Of a DNA stretch of 64,000 bases, positions 10,998 through 43,845 are shown one piece after another. Made by a program: the position numbers and the translations under genes. Origin of the DNA: a bacterium (GTDB lineage: Bacteria; Bacillota; Clostridia; Oscillospirales; CAG-272); the NCBI GenBank assembly GCA_963642885.1, contig CAVIJI010000008.1, positions 14,873 through 78,872 of the forward strand. The letters run 5' to 3'. The notes below the pieces were generated by a model. The model saw only the letters and a list, made by a program, of their open reading frames with translations. It searched no databases and was not told the DNA's origin. Every line of letters begins with the position of its first letter. The first letter of the stretch is position 1.

Positions 10998-11003
10998 AAA
11001 TAC

Positions 11004-11132
11004 ATCATATGACTGACGGATGATGCGGAAACACCATATATTGTGCTTTGCATAATATGGAAGAACCGCGTGGAGTATGATTGTATATTAGCCGACCGTC
11101 TGGGCACCTTCGCTCGGACGTCGGCTTTTTTA
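11004..11132 (+). promoter_or_regulatory. ZTP riboswitch (pfl motif) with intrinsic terminator
   Basis: P1 is ATCATA (11004-11009) with TATGAT. UGACUG core is identical to the consensus. Pseudoknot GACGG (11015-11019) pairs with CCGTC (11096-11100). Conserved 3' CCGUCUGGGCA (11096-11106). Terminator AGCCGAC(C)GTC...GACGTCGGCT plus T6 (11090-11132). Confidence 0.85.
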
Positions 11133-31544: not shown

Positions 31545-31833
31545 TTTACAATGCGATGATGGAAAAAAAGTAGCATGAGGTACTCTGCAGAGAGTCGGTG
31601 GTTGGTGAAAACCGATGAAGTTAACTTGTGTGAATACATTTCCGTAGCAGCACACCGAAGGGTTGAATATCTTGTATAACCTGTGTAGGCTGTGACGTCT
31701 GATATACGTTACAATATCGGGGCATTATTTATTAAGTGCCTGCTGAGGCTGTACTTGTAAAAGTGCGGTAAATTGAGGTGGTAACACGGTACATCCGTCC
31801 TCTGCTTGATTAGTCGGCAGAGGACTTTTTTTG
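31545..31833 (+). promoter_or_regulatory. T-box riboswitch, Tyr specifier (UAC)
   Basis: GCGATGA K-turn start. AGAGAGU AG-bulge. Distal loop UUGGUGAAAACC. Specifier loop GAA-UAC-A (UAC at 31635-31637). T-box sequence GAGGUGGUAACACGG. Terminator GTCCTCTGC (31798-31806) / GCAGAGGAC (31818-31826) plus T7. Confidence 0.9.
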
Positions 31834-31908
31834 TTCTCCGCCGATCTAAGAATCATTTCTTATTTTAGAAGGAGGCATAGCCGTACACATAGCAGTACGG
31901 CTGAGATT

Positions 31909-33543
31909 ATGGTAATTACCGATCTTCTCGAAAAAAATGCAAAGCTGTATCCTGATGAAGTGGCATTGGTGGAAATAAACCCCGCAAATCAGCCCGATGT
32001 TAATATTACCTGGCGTGAGTATTCATTAATCGAAGCGACACCGGGTGAAAAATACCGCCGTGAAATGACATGGAAAGAATTCGATACGAAAGCAAATCGT
32101 TTTGCGAATCTGCTGAAAACACGTGGTGTTGAAAAGGGCGACAAGGTTGCCATTTTACTGATGAACTGTCTTGAATGGCTTCCGATTTATTTCGGAATAC
32201 TCAAAACAGGTGCTCTTGCGGTTCCGATGAACTATCGTTACTCTTCAGATGAAATCAAGTACTGTACCGAATTAGCCGATGTATCCGTTCTTGTTTTCGG
32301 TCCGGAATTCACAGAACGTGTATCCACGGTATTCCTCGATATGCCGCTTGTCAAGGATTACTTTTTTGTAGGTAAAAATCCGCCCGAATTCGCGGGAAGT
32401 TATGACAAGCTTGTTACATACTGCTCATCAACAGCTCCCGCTGTCGATTTGAGTGAGGACGACGATGCTGCGATTTATTTTTCATCAGGTACTACAGGAT
32501 TTCCTAAGGCTATACTTCATGCCCATCGTTCTTTAATCAATTCATGTCGTACCGAACAGAATCATCATGGTCAAACCAGAAATGATGTTTTCTTATGTAT
32601 ACCTCCGCTTTATCATACAGGTGCTAAGATGCATTGGTTCGGCAGTTTAATCAGCGGAAGCCGTGCCGTAATTCTCAAAGGTGTATCTCCCGAGTGGATA
32701 CTGCGTACCATATCAAACGAAAAAGCTACGATTGTTTGGCTTCTTGTTCCGTGGGCTCAAGATATACTCGATGCCATTGACAGAGGCGACATTAAGCTCG
32801 AAGATTACCGTCTGTCGCAGTGGAGACTCATGCACATAGGAGCACAGCCCGTACCGCCGTCACTTATTAAACGTTGGAAAGCGATTTTCCCTCATCATCA
32901 ATATGACACGAATTACGGTTTGTCCGAATCTATCGGCCCAGGATGTGTTCATCTCGGAGTTGACAATATCGACAAGGTTGGTGCCATAGGAGTTCCCGGT
33001 TACCTTTGGGAAGCTGACATTGTAGGATCCGACGGACACAGCTGTGCTGACGAAGAAGTCGGTGAATTGATTGTAAAAGGCCCCGGTGTGATGAAATGTT
33101 ACTATAAAAACGAGACCGCTACAAACGAGATTCTGAAAAACGGTTGGCTATATACGGGTGATATGGCCAAGCGTGACAGCGAAGGATTTATTTACCTTGT
33201 AGACCGTAAAAAAGATGTAGTTATCACCGGCGGTGAAAATCTTTATCCCGTACAAATCGAAGATTATTTAAGACAAAACGATAAAATCAAAGATGTGGCT
33301 GTCATCGGGCTGCCCGACACGCGGCTCGGTGAAATAGCGGCGGCAATAATTGAGCTTAAACCCGACGTCACCGCTACCGAAGACGAAATTAATGAATTCT
33401 GTCTCGGTCTGCCGCGCTACAAACGCCCGAAAAAGATTATTTTCGCGGACGTTCCACGCAATCCCACAGGCAAAATAGAAAAACCTAAGCTCAGAGAGAT
33501 GTATTGCGGTGTTTCTCTTGTTGAAGCTCAAACAACAAGATAA
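31909..33543 (+). CDS. AMP-dependent acyl-CoA synthetase/ligase (class I adenylate-forming enzyme), substrate unknown
   Basis: Start moved to ATG 31909, because track start 31831 lies in the terminator U-run. SSGTTGFPKA, YGLSES, GWLYTGDMAKRDSEGFIYLVDRKKD and PTGKIEKPKL motifs. Confidence 0.85.
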   Translation: MVITDLLEKNAKLYPDEVALVEINPANQPDVNITWREYSLIEATPGEKYRREMTWKEFDTKANRFANLLKTRGVEKGDKVAILLMNCLEWLPIYFGILKTGALAVPMNYRYSSDEIKYCTELADVSVLVFGPEFTERVSTVFLDMPLVKDYFFVGKNPPEFAGSYDKLVTYCSSTAPAVDLSEDDDAAIYFSSGTTGFPKAILHAHRSLINSCRTEQNHHGQTRNDVFLCIPPLYHTGAKMHWFGSLISGSRAVILKGVSPEWILRTISNEKATIVWLLVPWAQDILDAIDRGDIKLEDYRLSQWRLMHIGAQPVPPSLIKRWKAIFPHHQYDTNYGLSESIGPGCVHLGVDNIDKVGAIGVPGYLWEADIVGSDGHSCADEEVGELIVKGPGVMKCYYKNETATNEILKNGWLYTGDMAKRDSEGFIYLVDRKKDVVITGGENLYPVQIEDYLRQNDKIKDVAVIGLPDTRLGEIAAAIIELKPDVTATEDEINEFCLGLPRYKRPKKIIFADVPRNPTGKIEKPKLREMYCGVSLVEAQTTR

Positions 33544-35111: not shown

Positions 35112-38100
35112 TTATTTAATAGTTTCGGCAAGATAAAATGCTTTTAATTTAGCCTGTTCATAAGGAATCCCCTTCTCCTCGAGTTTTCCTATGCATATCA
35201 TCATTTTACGATAATCCTCGGGTATAATTTTTTTGAAATTCGGTAAAAACTCATCAAAGTGTTCGAGTACTTTTTTTCCTAAAGCTGAACCTGTCTCCGC
35301 AACATGATTAGCAATCAATTTTTTCAGTTCATCGGCATCATGCTGCTCCGTTATCTCTGTCATCGTCACCATTTGTTTGTTCAGCTTAAGGTATAAATCG
35401 TGATCCGTATCGAGAACATACGCTATACCACCGCTCATTCCGGCCGCGAAATTTTTACCTGTTTTTCCCAAAATCACAGCGCAGCCACCTGTCATATATT
35501 CACATCCGTGATCTCCGCAGCCTTCGACTACGGCAACAGCACCCGAATTCCTTACGCAGAATCTCTCACCTGCGATACCGTTAATATACGCCTCACCGCT
35601 TGTGGCTCCGTATAACGCAACATTACCTATAATAATATTTTTTTCTGCCGCAAAGCTCGAACCATCTTCGGGTTTTACCGTAAGTTTTCCCCCGGATAAA
35701 CCTTTTCCGAAGTAATCGTTTGAATCACCTTTAAGCTTGATTGTCAAACCCTTCGGCAGGAATGCTCCGAATGATTGACCGCCACCGCCGTTTGCATTTA
35801 TGATATATGTGTCGTCTGTTAAAGTATTTCCGAATCTTTTTGTAATAACAGAGCCGAGTATGGTCCCGAAAGTGCGGTTCGTACTTGATACCTTAATGTT
35901 TGTTTCATGTTTTCGGTTGCTCATGAAATATTTTTCGAATTCGGGAATCAAAATCGATTCGTCTATTGTTTTTTCGAGTTCGAAATTATACTTTGCGCTG
36001 TTATCAAAATGATAATATCTTCCGTTGCTCTCCCCCATAAGGCTCGTTAAATCAATCGTTTCAGCACGATGAGTTATCAGCTTGCTGCGGACACGTATTT
36101 TTTCGGTATGTCCCACAAGTTCGTTAACGGTATGAACTCCGAGCTTTGCCATGATTTCACGCAGCTCTTCGGCGATAAATTTCATAAAATTCATAACATA
36201 TTCGGGCTTTCCGCAAAAACGCTTTCTGAGCTCGGGATTTTGCGTTGCTATACCTACGGGACATGTATCGAGATTGCACACACGCATCATTACGCAGCCC
36301 ATCGAAACAAGCGGTGCGGTAGCGAATCCGAATTCTTCGGCGCCGAGTATGCAAGCTATGGCTACATCTCTTCCGCTCATCAGTTTTCCGTCTGTTTCAA
36401 GTCTTACTCTTTCCCTCAGTCCGTTTTTTACAAGTGTTTGATGAGCTTCCGCAAGTCCCAATTCCCACGGTAAACCCGCATTATGTATAGAGCTTCGCGG
36501 AGCGGCACCTGTTCCGCCGTCGTATCCCGAAATCAGAACCACTTCTGCTCCTGCCTTCGCTACGCCTGACGCTATTGTACCGACTCCCGCTTCCGATACA
36601 AGCTTTACCGATATGCTCGCGTCACGATTAGCGTTTTTTAAATCAAATATCAATTGTGCAAGATCTTCTATCGAATATATATCATGATGCGGCGGAGGTG
36701 AAATCAGTGAAACACCTGGTGTAGAGTAACGTGTTTCCGCAATCCACGGATAAACCTTTTTTCCGGGTAAATGTCCCCCTTCTCCGGGCTTAGCGCCTTG
36801 TGCCATTTTTATCTGTATTTCCTTTGCGCTGCATAAATATTCGCTTGTCACTCCGAATCTTCCCGATGCAACCTGCTTTATGGCACTGTTTTTAATTGTC
36901 CCGAATCTTGCGGGATTTTCACCGCCCTCTCCCGAATTTGATTTACCTCCGAGTGTATTCATGGCTATAGCCATGCATTCATGGGCTTCCTGCGATATCG
37001 AACCGTATGACATTGCACCCGTTTTAAATCTCTTGACTATTTCGGAAACAGGTTCGACCTCATCAAGCGGTATTCCTCCGTTTTCATCCCATACAAACTC
37101 CAAAAGGCCACGTAATGTATGAGGCTTTCTTTCGTCATCAACCGCAGCGGTATATTCTTTAAATCTTTCGTATGAACCTGTGTGAGTAGCTTCGCGAAGT
37201 GCTATGATTGTCTGAGGGTTATACATATGATCCTCGGCATTATTATTCGAACGAAGCTTATGTATTCCCGCGCTGTCCGCTGTAGTATCAACACCGAGTC
37301 CGAGAGGGTCAAATGCGTGATTATGGCGCCACTCTACACCCTCGTTTATCTCCGCAAGACCTATACCCTCAACAGGACTTACAGTATTCGTGAAATACTT
37401 GTCGGTGACTGATTTACATATGCCCACAGCTTCGAATATCTGTGCCGATTGATATGACTGAAGTGTCGATATACCCATTTTAGATGCTATTTTAACTATA
37501 CCGTGAAGGATGGCGTTGTTATAATCTTCTATGGCAGTGTGATAATCCTTATCAAGTCTGCCGCTGTCGATAAGCGAAGCAACACACTCCTGTGCAAGAT
37601 ACGGATTTATCGCACGTGCTCCGTAACCGAGCAATGTCGCAAAATGATGTACATCTCTCGGCTCACCGCTTTCAAGAATTATGGAAACCGATGTACGCTT
37701 TTTGGTTCGAATGAGGTACTGCTCCATTGCGGAAACAGCCAGAAGTGACGGTATTGCGACATGATTTTCGTCTATACCTCTGTCTGATAAAATCAAAATA
37801 TTGGCTCCGTCACGGTATTCTCTGTCGCATTCAACGAAAAGTCTGTCTAATGCTTTTTCCAAAGAAGTATTCTTATAATACAGCAATGATACCGTAGATA
37901 CTTTAAATCCCGATTTGTTCATAGAGCGTATCTTCATTAAATCTACGGACGTCAGTATCGGATTGTTAATCTGAAGCACACTGCAGTTATCGGGCTTTTC
38001 TTCCAGTAAATTTCCATCTGAACCGACATAAACCGTAGTATCCGTTACTATTTCCTCACGAAGTGAGTCTATAGGAGGATTGGTCACTTGAGCGAAAAGC

Positions 38101-39638
38101 TGCTTGAAATAATTGAATAAGGGCTGATGTTTCTCGGATAATACCGCTAACGGAACATCACATCCCATTGAAGCAGTTGCTTCGATTCCGTTCTTCGCCA
38201 TCGGTAAAATTGCGTCGTTTATGTCTTCGTATGTATAACCGAATACTTTACACAGTCTGTCTCTTTCCTGTGCGGTATACATGGAAACCTTTTTATTCGG
38301 TACCGAAAGTGATGAAAGTGAAACAAGATACCTGTCAAGCCATTCACCGTATGGTTTACGTGAAGCATAATATTCCTTGCATTCTTCGTCGGATACAATT
38401 TTTTTATTAACCGTATCTACAAGAAGCATTTTACCGGGTTCCAAACGTGACTTGCATACAATATCATCTGACGGTATTTCGAGAACTCCGACTTCAGATG
38501 AAAGGATAAGCCTTCTGTCTTTTGTCACATAGTATCTTGCCGGTCTTAATCCGTTTCTGTCGAGCACAGCCCCTATAATATCACCGTCGGAAAATAAAAT
38601 AGCTGCGGGACCATCCCACGGTTCCATCATGGTTGCGTAATACCTGTAAAGGTCTCGCTTCTCACGGGTCATGTCCGTACTGTTTTTCCACGGTTCGGGA
38701 ATCGTTATCATTACGGCAAGAGGCAACGGAATACCGTTCATTTCGAGAAATTCAAGTGTATTGTCCAGCATAGCGGAATCCGAGCCGGATGCGGATATAA
38801 CCGGATATACCTTGTCCAAATCCGATTGCATCAGTGTCGAACGCATTGTTTCCTCACGTGCGAGCATTCTGTCCGCATTGCCTCTGATTGTATTGATTTC
38901 ACCGTTATGCAAAATAAGGCGATTCGGGTGGGCTCTCTCCCAACTCGGTGTTGTATTGGTAGAAAATCTGGAATGAACCATAGCGATTGCACTTTCGTAT
39001 GATTCGTCCATAAGATCAAGATAAAACCTTCTGAGCTGCTTTACGAGGAACATGCCTTTGTATACAACCGTACGTGACGACAATGAACATACATATGTAT
39101 TGTCATTGCTCTGCTCGAAAACTCTTCGTATCACATACAGCTTTCTGTCAAAATCAAGTCCGCGTGATATATTCGACGGTCGTTCAACAAAACATTGAGC
39201 AATGAACGGCATGGTATTCTTGGCTTTTTCGCCCAAAATCGTGCTGTCGGTCGGAACATCTCTCCAACCGAGCAGCCGTACACCTTCCTTATCGCAAATA
39301 ATTTCAAACATTTTTTTAGCTTGACGTCTTGCAAGAGTATTTTGCGGAAAGAAAAACATACCGACACCATAGTCACGGCTATTCGGCAAATCGAATCCCA
39401 GAGGTTTAACCGCTTTCGAGAAGAAAGTATGTGAAATCTGCAAAAGAATTCCGACTCCGTCACCTGTCTCCCCTGTTGCGTCCTTACCCGCTCTGTGCTC
39501 TAACTTTTCAACAATCGACAATGCGTCATTCACTATCGAATAAGATGCAGTGCCGTCTATGCTGACTACCGCACCTATACCGCATGCATCATGTTCATAG
39601 CTCTCACTGTATAATGTTTTTTGCTGACCATCCGTCAT
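35112..39638 (-). CDS. gltB: Glutamate synthase large subunit
   Basis: Start moved to ATG 39638; track start 39710 overlaps asnB. MTDGQQKTLYSESYEHDACGIG carries the Ntn amidotransferase Cys. FMN and 3Fe-4S regions are present. About 1508 aa. Confidence 0.93.
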   Translation of the reverse strand: MTDGQQKTLYSESYEHDACGIGAVVSIDGTASYSIVNDALSIVEKLEHRAGKDATGETGDGVGILLQISHTFFSKAVKPLGFDLPNSRDYGVGMFFFPQNTLARRQAKKMFEIICDKEGVRLLGWRDVPTDSTILGEKAKNTMPFIAQCFVERPSNISRGLDFDRKLYVIRRVFEQSNDNTYVCSLSSRTVVYKGMFLVKQLRRFYLDLMDESYESAIAMVHSRFSTNTTPSWERAHPNRLILHNGEINTIRGNADRMLAREETMRSTLMQSDLDKVYPVISASGSDSAMLDNTLEFLEMNGIPLPLAVMITIPEPWKNSTDMTREKRDLYRYYATMMEPWDGPAAILFSDGDIIGAVLDRNGLRPARYYVTKDRRLILSSEVGVLEIPSDDIVCKSRLEPGKMLLVDTVNKKIVSDEECKEYYASRKPYGEWLDRYLVSLSSLSVPNKKVSMYTAQERDRLCKVFGYTYEDINDAILPMAKNGIEATASMGCDVPLAVLSEKHQPLFNYFKQLFAQVTNPPIDSLREEIVTDTTVYVGSDGNLLEEKPDNCSVLQINNPILTSVDLMKIRSMNKSGFKVSTVSLLYYKNTSLEKALDRLFVECDREYRDGANILILSDRGIDENHVAIPSLLAVSAMEQYLIRTKKRTSVSIILESGEPRDVHHFATLLGYGARAINPYLAQECVASLIDSGRLDKDYHTAIEDYNNAILHGIVKIASKMGISTLQSYQSAQIFEAVGICKSVTDKYFTNTVSPVEGIGLAEINEGVEWRHNHAFDPLGLGVDTTADSAGIHKLRSNNNAEDHMYNPQTIIALREATHTGSYERFKEYTAAVDDERKPHTLRGLLEFVWDENGGIPLDEVEPVSEIVKRFKTGAMSYGSISQEAHECMAIAMNTLGGKSNSGEGGENPARFGTIKNSAIKQVASGRFGVTSEYLCSAKEIQIKMAQGAKPGEGGHLPGKKVYPWIAETRYSTPGVSLISPPPHHDIYSIEDLAQLIFDLKNANRDASISVKLVSEAGVGTIASGVAKAGAEVVLISGYDGGTGAAPRSSIHNAGLPWELGLAEAHQTLVKNGLRERVRLETDGKLMSGRDVAIACILGAEEFGFATAPLVSMGCVMMRVCNLDTCPVGIATQNPELRKRFCGKPEYVMNFMKFIAEELREIMAKLGVHTVNELVGHTEKIRVRSKLITHRAETIDLTSLMGESNGRYYHFDNSAKYNFELEKTIDESILIPEFEKYFMSNRKHETNIKVSSTNRTFGTILGSVITKRFGNTLTDDTYIINANGGGGQSFGAFLPKGLTIKLKGDSNDYFGKGLSGGKLTVKPEDGSSFAAEKNIIIGNVALYGATSGEAYINGIAGERFCVRNSGAVAVVEGCGDHGCEYMTGGCAVILGKTGKNFAAGMSGGIAYVLDTDHDLYLKLNKQMVTMTEITEQHDADELKKLIANHVAETGSALGKKVLEHFDEFLPNFKKIIPEDYRKMMICIGKLEEKGIPYEQAKLKAFYLAETIK

Positions 39639-39660
39639 ATCTCTACCCTTCCCACCGATT

Positions 39661-41241
39661 TTATTTACCGCTTTCTCCGTAATTTGCCAGAACCCTTGCA
39701 GATGGATCATTTACATCACATCCTGCCCAATCTTTGTTCGGCATCCAGAATCCTGTAATCATTTCCGCCTGATCGGGATAATATTTTTCGAATAACTCCC
39801 TGTACAGCAATGACTCCTTGGTAAACGGAACGGCATATGTGTATTTTTTTATTCTGTTTTTAAATTCATCATCCGTGTACTTCTTTTCGGCAAATGCTTT
39901 CAAATCATCCACCATGGAATGCCCAACCGCATCACTGAATGCGGCTTTCTCTCTCATCAAGATGTTTCTCGGAAGCCATTCACCCTCAAATGCGTGTCTT
40001 AAAAGATATTTACCTATGCCCCGGCTGTTAATCTTCATTTCGGGATTAAGTGCTAAAACATACTGTGCAAAATCTATATCTCCGAACGGAACTCTCGCCT
40101 CAAGTGAATTTACCGAAATACATCTGTCGGCTCTCAGCACATCATACATGTGTATCTCGCGGATTCTTTTCTCGGATTCCTTTTGAAAAGCATAAGCCGA
40201 TGGAGCGTAATCGGTGTATTTATATCCGAAAAGCTCATCCGAAATTTCACCTGTCAATATCACACGCAAATCAGTGTTATCGTGTATATATTTGCATACC
40301 AAATACATACCTATCGAAGCACGAATTGTCGTAATGTCATATGAGCCGATTACAGACACAACCGTCGGTAATGCCTCTAAAACATCACTCTCGGTAATTA
40401 TTACCTCCGTATGTTCGGATTTAATATAATCCGCAACCTCTCTCGCATATTTTAAATCTATCGCATCGGTGCTCATTCCAATAGCAAAGGTTCTGATAGG
40501 CTTTTCCGAAAGTCTTGCGGCAATCGAGCAAACAAGCGATGAATCCAAGCCTCCGGATAATAAAAATCCTATCGGTGCATCTGCATCCAAACGCTTCTTT
40601 ACTCCGCTTATCAACTTATCTTTGATTTTCCGTGCCGATGTTTCGAGGTCATCGTATATTACACTCTTCGGGCATGAAATATCATTGTAGCAGATAAATC
40701 TACCTCTTTTGTAAAAATGTCCCGGAGGAAACGGTTTGATTTTATCACAGATACCTACAAGGTTTTTGGCTTCGCTTGCGAACAATATCCCGCCGCATTT
40801 ATCAAAGCCGTAAAACAAAGGACGTATTCCTATCGGATCACGTGCGGCAATTAACTCCTTTGCTTTGCCATCGTAAATAATGCATGCGAACTCTGCGTCC
40901 AACTTTGCGAACATATCGGTTCCGTATTCCTTGTATAAAGGAAGAAGAAGTTCACAATCCGATTCTCCGAAAAACTTATAACCTTTGCCTTCAAGCTCCG
41001 TTTTCAGGCTTCTGAAGCCGTATATTTCACCGTTGCATACAGAATAACAGTCTTCATACGAAAACGGCTGCATTCCCCTCTCATCCGGTCCCATAATCGA
41101 AAGTCTGTGAAATCCGAGTATGCCGCCATCGACATTTATAATCCTCGACATATCCGGCCCACGTGATACTGTTTTATCAAAGCCTTCGATGAATTTTTCC
41201 TGTGATATTGTATTTCCGTAATATCCCATGATAGAACACAT
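39661..41241 (-). CDS. asnB: Asparagine synthase (glutamine-hydrolysing)
   Basis: 526 aa. N-terminal Cys2 (MCSIMGYYG) and PP-loop SGGLDSS. Confidence 0.9.
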   Translation of the reverse strand: MCSIMGYYGNTISQEKFIEGFDKTVSRGPDMSRIINVDGGILGFHRLSIMGPDERGMQPFSYEDCYSVCNGEIYGFRSLKTELEGKGYKFFGESDCELLLPLYKEYGTDMFAKLDAEFACIIYDGKAKELIAARDPIGIRPLFYGFDKCGGILFASEAKNLVGICDKIKPFPPGHFYKRGRFICYNDISCPKSVIYDDLETSARKIKDKLISGVKKRLDADAPIGFLLSGGLDSSLVCSIAARLSEKPIRTFAIGMSTDAIDLKYAREVADYIKSEHTEVIITESDVLEALPTVVSVIGSYDITTIRASIGMYLVCKYIHDNTDLRVILTGEISDELFGYKYTDYAPSAYAFQKESEKRIREIHMYDVLRADRCISVNSLEARVPFGDIDFAQYVLALNPEMKINSRGIGKYLLRHAFEGEWLPRNILMREKAAFSDAVGHSMVDDLKAFAEKKYTDDEFKNRIKKYTYAVPFTKESLLYRELFEKYYPDQAEMITGFWMPNKDWAGCDVNDPSARVLANYGESGK

Positions 41242-41251
41242 ATTATACTCC

Positions 41252-41509
41252 GTTTAAGCACAACTTTATTGAATTTCAGGACGAACTGTGCTGTCCGCGG
41301 TGCCACCTGTATTATCCGCATAGGATCTCTTTACTGCTCATTATTTAAGCATTGCAAATTAACGCTTTGCACACGCCGTACCTACTGTCATATATATGAG
41401 TTCGGTTTGGGGCTCGAAGGTGTTATTCGCGCAGGCATCGGAATACGTTTCTCACTGTCACGTACTCACTGTGTCCTCTGTATCTGCGGTACTTCTCCTC
41501 GTCACAGCC
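41252..41509 (-). promoter_or_regulatory. T-box riboswitch, Asn specifier (AAC)
   Basis: Minus-strand reading: GUGACGAGGAGAAGUA stem I base; specifier loop CGAAU-AAC-A (AAC at 41424-41422); T-box AGGUGGCACCGCGG (41308-41295), where UGGC predicts discriminator G. No U-tract terminator is visible before the GGAG SD at 41251-41248. Confidence 0.8.
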
Positions 41510-41566
41510 TTTTTTCACTTTATTTTTTAATTATAATTGTTTTATTCTCGGTAAGCCGATTCTACT

Positions 41567-43660
41567 TTATCTGACTCCGAAAAGAAGCTCACCGTATGAC
41601 GGATAAGGCCAATTTTCACCTGAGGCAATAGTTTCCATTTCATCCGCGGGAATACGCATTGCTTTCATATCCGGAATAATCGTTGATTTATAAAACTCGG
41701 CAAGCTCGGCACAGTCTTTAATCGATTTTGCCGAAATAAGATCGAGCTCCGTCTTCTTTACAGCCGCATTGCATGCTCCGATTAATGCGCACAGATTCTT
41801 AATACTTTCCTTTTCATAGGTGCAATCCACATCAACGTCAAATGATGTTTTTACGGCAGCATTTTGCGCAAGCTCTGCCGAATATTTACTCATCGCGGGA
41901 AGTATATCTTTTCTCGCCATATCGAGCATTGTGAGTGCTTCTATATTTATTATCTTACAATAATTTTCAAGAAGTACCTCATGTCTTGCGATAAGCTCCG
42001 TTTTGCTGTACACATTATGACTTGTGAACAGCAATACATTTTTATCGTCCAACATATGCGAGAGTGCATCGGGAGTGGTTTTGAAATTGTACAAACCTCT
42101 CTTTTCCGCTTCCTTTACCCAAGATTCATCGTATCCGTCGCCGTTAAAGATTATTCTCTTATGCTCTTTAATTGTTTTCTTAATAAGCTCATGCAAATCT
42201 GCTTCGAAATTGTTTGAACCCTCGAGTATATCGGCAAACTGCTTCAATTCCTCGGCAACAGTCGTATTCAGCACCGTATTTGCACATGATATCGAAGCGG
42301 CTGAGCCGAGCATACGGAATTCGAATTTATTTCCCGTGAACGCGAAAGGACTTGTTCTGTTTCTGTCCGTCGTATCTTTGGGGAACTTGGGAAGAGTATG
42401 TACACCGATACGCATTAACTCTTTTTGCTTCGAATCGTACTTTTCGTCCTTCTCGATTGCTTCGAGTATTTCCGAAAGATCTGTACCGAGAAACATCGAA
42501 ACTATCGCAGGCGGTGCCTCGTTAGCACCTAATCTGTGATCGTTTCCGGCGGATGCTACCGAAATTCTGAGAAGATCCTGATATTCATCAACGGCTTTGA
42601 TTACGGCACAAAGGAAAAGTAAGAATTGCGCATTTTCGTACGGTGTTTCTCCGGGTTCGAGAAGGTTGGTTCCTTTATCCGTTGATATGGACCAGTTGTT
42701 ATGCTTACCGCTTCCGTTCACACCCGCAAACGGCTTTTCATGAAGCAAACATACCATTCCGTGACGTTTTGCAACCTTTTGCATCATTTCCATAGTAATT
42801 TGATTGTGATCAGCCGCAATATTCGTCGTAGTAAATATCGGTGCCATTTCATGCTGTGCGGGAGCTACTTCATTATGTTCTGTTTTCGCCAAAACTCCCA
42901 GCTTCCACAATTCTTCGTTGAGTTCCTTCATAAATGAGGCTACACGTGGTTTTATGGCACCGAAATAGTGATCGTCAAGTTCCTGTCCCTTCGGAGCCAT
43001 TGCACCGAACAAAGTTCTTCCCGTATATATCAAATCTTTTCTCTTGTCATACAGATTCTTATCGACTAAGAAATATTCCTGTTCGGGGCCTACCGTCGTT
43101 TTTACCGATGAAACATCATCGTTTCCGAATAATTTCAAAACGCGTAAAGCCTGACGGTTTATCGCCTCCATGGAACGGAGAAGTGCTGTTTTCTGATCGA
43201 GAGCCTCACCGCCGTACGAACAAAATACCGTCGGAATATAGAGCACACCGTCTTTTATAAACGCATATGAAGTTGCATCCCACGCCGTATATCCTCTCGC
43301 TTCAAATGTAGCACGCAATCCGCCCGACGGGAATGAAGAAGCATCGGGCTCACCGCGCATCAGCTCCTTACCTGAGAATTCCATTATCACTTTTCCGTTA
43401 GGCTTCGGCGAGATAAAGCTGTCGTGCTTCTCGGCAGTAACACCCGTCATCGGCTGGAACCAATGAGTATAGTGAGTTGCCCCTTTTTCGATTGCCCAAT
43501 CTTTCATTGCGTTCGCGACAACAGTAGCTACTTCAGTATCAAGATGCTTTCCGTTTTTTATTGTTTTTTGTAATGTCTTATATGTTTCCTTGGGAAGTCT
43601 TGCCTCCATCACGGAATCATCGAAAACCATTGACGCAAATAATTCGGTTATTGTACTCAT
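41567..43660 (-). CDS. glnN: Glutamine synthetase type III
   Basis: Start moved to ATG 43660 with a GGAGG RBS. About 697 aa. [28 protein letters not shown]... and length typical of GSIII. Confidence 0.88.
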
Positions 43661-43680
43661 CTTAATCCTCCAAATGAATG

Positions 43681-43749
43681 AAAAAAGCGACAATCGGGCA
43701 GGAAAATATCGGTCTGAACAGACCGTATTTTACCGACGCCATTGTCGCT
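43681..43749 (-). terminator. Long interrupted terminator hairpin in the glnN leader
   Basis: Minus strand: AGCGACAAT (43749-43741) pairs with ATTGTCGCT (43694-43686), followed by T6. The interior holds GGUAAAAUA/UAUUUUCC and CGGUCU-GUUC-AGACCG helices. Ends 20 nt before the RBS. Confidence 0.7.
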
Positions 43750-43816
43750 GTTAATCATATTAATATTATAAGTGAACACCTGTATCATTAACGGTTGTCC
43801 GCTTACTATGTGCATT

Positions 43817-43845
43817 ATTATATCACCCACATAAAGTCTTGTCAA
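43817..43845 (-). promoter_or_regulatory. Consensus promoter of glnN
   Basis: Minus strand: TTGACA (43845-43840), 17-nt spacer, TGaTATAAT (-10 at 43822-43817). Confidence 0.75.

Follow-up and report, generated by a model that had tools for sequence, protein, structure and literature searches.

A tRNA-Asn T-box without an intrinsic terminator between the glutamine synthetase and asnB genes of a Clostridia operon: a candidate translational switch

In Bacillus subtilis, the gltX-cysE-cysS operon carries between its cistrons a T-box of the terminator type, which acts on all the cistrons downstream of it. The leader considered here also lies between cistrons: it precedes asnB, the gene of a glutamine-hydrolysing asparagine synthetase, in an operon ordered type III glutamine synthetase (GS-III), T-box, asnB, gltB, gltD, within a 64,000-nt stretch of a Clostridia genome (assembly GCA_963642885.1, contig CAVIJI010000008.1, positions 14,873 to 78,872; hereafter the window). 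It is a tRNA-Asn T-box, and it has no intrinsic terminator.

The T-boxes of Firmicutes are treated as transcription attenuators, and the TBDB database trims them to a poly-U; antiterminators there average -7.4 +/- 4.2 kcal/mol and terminators -19.5 +/- 7.9 kcal/mol. Translational T-boxes are well known only from Actinobacteria, in ileS (Sherwood, Grundy & Henkin 2015); a review covers the structures solved for M. tuberculosis and N. farcinica (PMC7583486). TBDB sought its class II T-boxes only in Actinobacteria, among matches with a truncated Stem I. A literature search found no asnB or translational T-box in Clostridia; prior mention in Vitreschak 2008, Sherwood 2015 or Gutierrez-Preciado 2009 is possible. 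Our reading, held with a confidence that falls a little short of even, is that the asnB leader is a functional intercistronic T-box acting on initiation of asnB translation, not on transcription. The evidence for this is good at the level of the family and suggestive only for the copy in the window.

A terminator-less asparagine T-box

The Rfam covariance model RF00230 (gathering score 93 bits) matches the leader over the whole model, positions 1-219, with 110.7 bits and E = 1e-23, and places the specifier in the AAC register; the Asn T-box proposed in the initial annotation is thereby borne out. Stem I is full-length on the model, with the AG bulge and the distal loop region included. The elements to which the argument refers are these.

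41274-41514, minus strand: T-box leader (Stem I, Stem II, IIA/B, Stem III and antiterminator), from RF00230
41505-41490, minus strand: base of Stem I, GUGACGAGGAGAAGUA, from the sequence
41424-41422, minus strand: specifier AAC (Asn), register from the Rfam alignment
41326-41314, minus strand: Stem III (AUCC-UAUGC-GGAU); its 5' half and loop, AUCCUAUG (41326-41319), are the outer 5' arm of the proposed sequestrator
41309-41277, minus strand: antiterminator or anti-sequestrator, with helices A1 (CAGG:CCUG) and A2 (GCGGAC:GUUCGU), loop AGCACA and the 7-nt bulge UGGCACC
41308-41295, minus strand: T-box sequence AGGUGGCACCGCGG, with its UGGC bulge at 41305-41302
41292-41257, minus strand: hairpin 1, 9 bp, AGCACAGUU (41292-41284) paired with AGUUGUGCU (41265-41257), without a U tract

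The base of Stem I, the specifier, the T-box sequence and the 9-bp hairpin had all been picked out in the initial annotation and are present as it described them, as is the Shine-Dalgarno (SD) sequence of asnB, GGAG at 41251-41248, six nucleotides 5' of the ATG at 41241.

Relatives were gathered by an AsnB-queried genome scan and a metagenome scan, which yielded 160 loci, all in metagenome-assembled genomes (MAGs) of Clostridia, and by protein look-ups, which added further loci; 27 distinct asnB leaders with a T-box were collected in all. The AAC specifier matches the gene it would regulate. It lies in a specifier-loop S-turn made by AGUA (41493-41490) and GAA-U-AAC-A (41428-41421), and the motif GAA-N-AAC-(A/C) is present in all 27 leaders. 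Their bulges are UGGC (20 leaders) or UGGU (7), never UGGA or UGGG, a restriction compatible with the G discriminator (G73) of tRNA-Asn. Neither the window nor 47 related loci contain a tRNA gene, for tRNA-Asn or any other.

The leader is maintained. The window's own clade consists of the window and its two nearest relatives, L001 and L161, the only three species-level types in the collections; copies from the same species have identical 3' domains. Across the three species, pairwise identity of the T-box leader is 86%, 71% and 74%, against 52%, 40% and 36% at 4-fold degenerate sites of asnB in the same three comparisons. Being far more conserved than synonymous sites, the leader is, on this comparison of sequences, under purifying selection and not a relic. 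Its antiterminator, at -8.4 to -9.5 kcal/mol, has helices A1 and A2 in which 96.6% of cells are paired across 8 related leaders, with two compensatory pairs, one of them a change from G-C to A-U specific to the window.

What the leader lacks is a terminator. In a pattern scan no terminator-like site appeared anywhere from the antiterminator to the asnB ATG, and neither the scan nor local folds nor a check of asnB's first 60 nt revealed a hairpin followed by a U tract; the absence of an intrinsic terminator, reported in the initial annotation, thus stands, and no missed terminator came to light. Hairpin 1 is the sole local competitor of the antiterminator, competing with its upper helix; its energy is -4.4 to -6.4 kcal/mol, and the sequence after it is UUAAAC. 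The corresponding sequences across the clade (UUAAAC, AAAAAC, GCACGG) contain a U tract in none of three cases. A second T-box in the window (31547-31805, plus strand) ends in a canonical terminator of -18 kcal/mol, then U7, so the absence is specific to the asnB leader rather than a habit of the organism. The lack of an intrinsic terminator after the asnB T-box is more than chance.

Hairpin 1 is itself well kept. Its 8-9 bp homologues are significant in L001 (p = 0.008) and L161 (p = 0.004) and at p = 0.085 in the window; the three clade members have lengthened it to 8-9 bp by three different routes into the antiterminator 3' strand; and its GUGC core is retained in 9/9 leaders of group 1, 4-7 nt 5' of the SD. 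The initial annotation had allowed that termination here might simply be weak. Hairpin 1 is no such weak terminator; it appears to form the tip of a larger refolded structure, and the ribosome-binding site (RBS) would there be covered by Stem III with the T-box 5' strand rather than by the antiterminator 3' strand.

Sequestrators in relatives and in the window's clade

Four types of expression platform occur among the 27 leaders. Two leaders, that of L045 and its copies and that of L178, have canonical terminators with U tracts; neither asnB has another gene closely linked behind it, and that of L045 is directly followed by an intrinsic terminator. Since other types consist of relatives with clear sequestrators of the SD and AUG or of the start codons, and a terminator is kept only where asnB stands alone, the best-supported reading is an output that is translational or in some other way non-canonical, one of the two options in the initial annotation.

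One such sequestrator is found in a sister clade, 1b (L002-L005, L164 and L177). Here the SD region, AGGACGA, has its complement in UCGUCCU of the antiterminator 3' strand, and UGUGUU, the start and Cys codons, has its own in the antiterminator loop, AGCACA. Between the antiterminator 3' half and SD and AUG the duplex energy lies at -16 to -18 kcal/mol, where shuffled sequence gives about -10 (p = 0 to 0.09), and the ON fold is 4-10 kcal/mol less stable than the global fold. This nested sequestrator makes no use of the GUGC motif. In L003 and L164 the T-box 5' strand GGUACCGCGG is in addition complementary to CUGCGGUACC, asnB codons 7-11 (Tyr-Cys-Gly-Thr), in a helix of 10-11 bp (-20.6 kcal/mol in L003), so that both halves of the clade 1b antiterminator have partners in the RBS or coding region. 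An H-type pseudoknot between the loop GCACA and downstream UGUGC, with the antiterminator formed or jointly with the SD helix, is sterically conceivable in clade 1b; as a device of the window's clade it was rejected, because it clashes with the extension of hairpin 1 into A2.

In group 2 (15 distinct leaders) the mask is different: codons 1-6 of asnB are paired by GCCCUAUUGAAUGC, a segment that begins within the antiterminator 3' strand. The 13-bp helix has 88.7% of its cells paired, against 18-48% in slid controls, and it covaries, with UA, AU and CG pairs alternating at a Ser wobble position.

Two general measures gave little. Scoring the mean accessibility of ON and OFF ensembles in all leaders was too noisy, and covariation tests on the nested sequestrator and hairpin 1 in 8 leaders were uninformative, both strands being nearly invariant.

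For the window, the initial annotation had drawn a sequestrator of the SD from UUCGU of the antiterminator and ACGGA. The pairing can be drawn, and its proposed role fails: the nested version reaches only -2.4 kcal/mol, and the antiterminator 3' half pairs with the RBS no better than shuffled sequence does (-8.6 versus -8.9 kcal/mol, p = 0.51), as is also the case in L001 and L161 (p about 0.5). The best partner of the RBS and coding start in all three species of the clade is the Stem III region. An unconstrained RNAalifold consensus of the three gives one long-range structure of 32 pairs with hairpin 1 at its apex, whose further arms in the window are as follows.

41312-41298, minus strand: inner 5' arm of the proposed sequestrator, comprising AUACA (41312-41308), the GC of the UGGC bulge (41303-41302) and CCG (41300-41298), from RNAalifold
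41252-41223, minus strand: 3' arm of the proposed sequestrator, comprising CGG (41252-41250), GU (41248-41247), UGUGU (41240-41236), UCU (41235-41233) and CAUGGGAU (41230-41223)

The 3' arm spans the SD, the ATG (41241-41239) and codons 2-7, and the consensus pairs are AUCCUAUG:CAUGGGAU, GGA:UCU, AUACA:UGUGU, GC:GU and CCG:CGG. One pair in the long-range helix is compensatory, G-C in the window and L161 and A-U in L001, joining Stem III to the Ile wobble position of asnB codon 4; several consistent one-sided changes accompany it. When hairpin 1 is enforced in folding, the arms form spontaneously. The arm duplex is calculated at -21.7 kcal/mol in L001 and -26.0 in L161 (nulls -15.6 and -19.5; p = 0.038 and 0.048), and at -19.1 in the window (null -14.7 +/- 3.0; p = 0.086). 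Ranked among synonymous recodings, the real codons fall in the best 8% for the window and in the best 18% and 1.7% for the sister species. OFF and ON ensemble energies are -35.3 and -28.6 kcal/mol in L001, -45.6 and -29.8 in L161, and -27.2 and -25.8 in the window. The sequestrator fold is thus predicted to be strong in L001 and L161 and marginal in the window.

On the pattern of the T-box family, the ON state would have uncharged tRNA-Asn paired with the AAC specifier and the UGGC bulge, its binding holding Stem III and the antiterminator and leaving the asnB RBS free. In the OFF state the whole discriminator would refold: hairpin 1 would take the antiterminator loop and the start of the 3' strand, and the Stem III, linker and T-box 5' strand so released (41326-41298) would pair with SD, AUG and codons 2-7, the product being a single long imperfect hairpin tipped by hairpin 1. 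Such a fold, as it excludes Stem III, the bulge and helix A1, would be incompatible with a tRNA-bound discriminator. The exact OFF fold in the window, and the size of its effect, we infer from these models.

Several points weigh against translational control by this fold in the window. There the OFF fold leads the ON fold by only about 1.4 kcal/mol, and both significance tests give p of about 0.08; the p-values from the clade are not independent, its members being related; and just one compensatory pair backs the long-range helix. Nearest-neighbour folding leaves out tRNA, ribosomes, pseudoknots and folding kinetics. Stem III, which would have to refold in the model proposed here, is regarded as static in characterised T-boxes (PMC7583486). 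Lastly, the window has a hairpin of its own on the minus strand, GUUGUGCUU (41264-41256) with GAGUAUAAU (41250-41242), of -7.0 kcal/mol. Since it can form alongside the antiterminator, it would leave the SD covered even in the predicted ON state, and the window yields no clean ON/OFF prediction. This hairpin is not conserved in L001 or L161 and is probably fortuitous. It shares a strand with hairpin 1, which makes a 1:2/2:3/3:4 arrangement whose literal logic would be inverted.

The operon and other explanations of the output

What the leader could control depends on the genes around it.

43817-43845, minus strand: operon promoter TTGACA-17-TATAAT, 12/12 matches, TG-extended, from a scan
41567-43660, minus strand: GS-III gene, from GSIII_N and Gln-synt_C Pfam matches on orthologues
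39661-41241, minus strand: asnB, 526 aa, beginning Met-Cys, an equivalog-level match to NCBIfam NF006949 (603.6 bits, cut-off 499)
35112-39638, minus strand: gltB, glutamate synthase large subunit, NF008730, 1641 bits
33617-35098, minus strand: gltD, glutamate synthase small subunit, TIGR01317, 661.5 bits

The GS-III stop codon lies 52 nt 5' of the T-box, across an interval free of terminators. The initial annotation had the order of asnB, gltB and gltD right, and their lack of an intervening terminator, since the pattern scan found no terminator-like site among the three; its figure of 20 nt between asnB and gltB was slightly low, for the gltB ATG (39638) is 22 nt past the asnB stop. gltD follows gltB after 13 nt.

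A promoter serving the T-box alone was considered and rejected: the TATAAT at 41535-41530, which has neither an acceptable -35 element nor a TG extension, is missing from the scan's list and lacks conservation. The T-box of L161, L164 and L002 begins about 10-30 nt past the upstream stop codon, and in many relatives' loci 10-60 nt past that of GS-III, amtB-PII or guaA, which leaves little space for a promoter of its own and makes the T-box intercistronic. An internal gltB promoter, which the initial annotation had named as a challenge to its reading, was likewise rejected: matches reach 9/12 at most, at a density under the shuffled expectation (22 found versus 27.1 expected).

Because nothing terminates, transcription into gltBD would be independent of the switch and proceed whatever the Asn status. 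Control of glutamate synthase transcription by tRNA-Asn charging, suggested in the initial annotation, is therefore unlikely; polarity or translational coupling may still reach gltBD. The variety of genes found within about 50 nt behind asnB under terminator-less leaders points the same way: gltBD, purF (six loci), pyrG (two), nadE and purC-purF-guaA. These are mostly glutamine amidotransferase genes, which should stay on when Asn is plentiful, as fits a translational switch specific to one cistron, and the pattern of sequences argues that they are insulated from Asn control rather than coupled to it. The sample is small and has exceptions, such as L014, whose asnB is followed by a terminator. 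More widely, asnB recurs beside GS-III, gltBD, purF, pyrG, nadE, guaA and an amtB-PII fusion in the Clostridia MAGs (L001-L179), and many of these asnB genes have no T-box.

Of the other explanations the one that survives best, though we think it unlikely, is that the output is weak or comes through hairpin 1 alone. In the absence of a tRNA-held antiterminator, hairpin 1 would fold the A/U-rich single strand 5' of the SD, its base 5 nt from GGAG, and occlusion of a standby site would lower translation modestly, or mRNA stability would shift, with no long-range pairing. Hairpin 1 is indeed the element best conserved in position, is significant in both sister species, and by its three separate extensions points to competition with the antiterminator, while the long-range arms in the window are barely above chance. 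In the window, however, it is weaker than the antiterminator by the energies given above, and it leaves the SD untouched; our literature search gave no T-box or riboswitch precedent for standby-site control; and RNAalifold recovers the arms unconstrained.

Non-canonical attenuation, which we regard as improbable, would have hairpin 1 or unprotected OFF-state RNA trigger factor-dependent termination, assisted by NusA/NusG or by Rho, with gltBD co-regulated with asnB. The topology of hairpin 1, whose 5' strand consists of the antiterminator loop and 3' strand, is that of a T-box terminator, and a translationally silent asnB might expose RNA to Rho and so cause polarity on gltBD. Such termination is hard to reconcile with purF, pyrG, nadE and gltBD behind such leaders in relatives; the U tract is missing from all three clade members, hairpin 1 is weak in the window, the scan found no terminator-like site, and the organism's other T-box has a canonical terminator. 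That the expression platform has decayed, the tRNA-binding core being kept or recently orphaned and asnB essentially constitutive from the operon transcript, is likewise improbable: the window's antiterminator is as stable as any alternative fold and the SD complementarity of clade 1b is lost there, but purifying selection on the leader is clear (identity of 0.71-0.86 versus 0.36-0.52 at 4-fold sites), a window-specific compensatory A-U pair maintains the antiterminator, and hairpin 1 is kept by different sequences in three species.

Other leaders and listed starts in the window deserve mention in their own right. The GS-III leader (43661-43812, minus strand, about 150 nt) stands behind the perfect sigma-70 promoter (43845-43817) and has a long hairpin, GCGACAAU (43748-43741) with AUUGUCGC (43693-43686), then U6; its minimum free energy is -48.5 kcal/mol, z = -4.4. 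It matches no Rfam family at E <= 1 and, heading the operon, is a candidate attenuator. GS-III starts at ATG 43660 and not at TTG 43693, as in the open reading frame (ORF) list. The second T-box, taken with its terminator, occupies 31547-31830 (plus strand): it scores 109.7 bits, has the bulge UGGU and, by the Rfam alignment, the specifier UAC (Tyr), and ends in CCUCUGC...GCAGAGG and U7. It heads an acyl-CoA/AMP-dependent ligase-like ORF listed as 31831-33543, whose real start is probably ATG 31909; this is an unusual target for a Tyr T-box. A ZMP/ZTP riboswitch aptamer lies at 10999-11112 (plus strand; RF01750, 46.5 bits, gathering score 39).

Significance and relation to known T-boxes

The relatives taken together suggest, tentatively, that Clostridia of the Oscillospirales type may carry an undescribed class of Asn T-box, translational and with a long Stem I, in which refolding of the discriminator onto the RBS replaces the terminator. 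Lineages would differ in the mask: the antiterminator 3' strand on SD and AUG; a segment after the antiterminator on codons 1-6; or Stem III and the T-box 5' strand on SD, AUG and codons 2-7, the 3' strand being drawn off by a decoy hairpin. If this is so, asnB would be controlled on its own although its operons also encode glutamine-consuming enzymes (GS-III with gltBD, purF, pyrG, nadE, guaA), whose genes would be left on, and translational output would serve to tune one cistron within a polycistronic nitrogen-assimilation mRNA. The exchange of terminator for sequestrator would then have arisen independently outside Actinobacteria, in gut and rumen Clostridia, and different parts of the discriminator would be open to recruitment as RBS mask. 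For annotation, gltBD behind this asnB leader should not enter an Asn T-box regulon. The window locus itself is of modest practical importance, its predicted switch being weak.

With canonical transcriptional T-boxes (RF00230; for example B. subtilis tyrS and glyQS) the window's leader shares a full-length Stem I and specifier loop, Stem II and IIA/B, Stem III, the UGGN bulge with its antiterminator helix, and a specifier matching a regulated amino-acid biosynthesis gene. Every core feature tested, the terminator excepted, places it in the T-box family. It differs in having no terminator hairpin or U tract, in an alternative fold that would involve the RBS and first codons, and in its intercistronic position, away from the 5' end of a transcript. 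The T-box of gltX-cysE-cysS resembles it in standing between genes of one operon and giving the downstream gene control specific to its own amino acid; the window's leader, unlike that one, is terminator-less, and gltBD downstream are expected to escape.

In function the element resembles the translational T-boxes of actinobacterial ileS, in which SD accessibility is the output, as we propose here, and the anti-sequestrator is stabilised by uncharged tRNA. Clade 1b carries the likeness furthest, its antiterminator 3' strand pairing directly with the SD exactly as in ileS, whereas that of the window does not pair with the SD beyond chance. The hosts are Bacillota (Clostridia MAGs) instead of Actinobacteria, and the specifier is for Asn instead of Ile. 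The window's leader has a long Stem I with the distal elbow-binding region, where most of the ileS class have a truncated or ultrashort one. Finally, the predicted RBS partner in the window's clade is Stem III with the T-box 5' strand, a decoy hairpin taking the 3' strand, and the mask would extend beyond the SD to the start codon and early codons.

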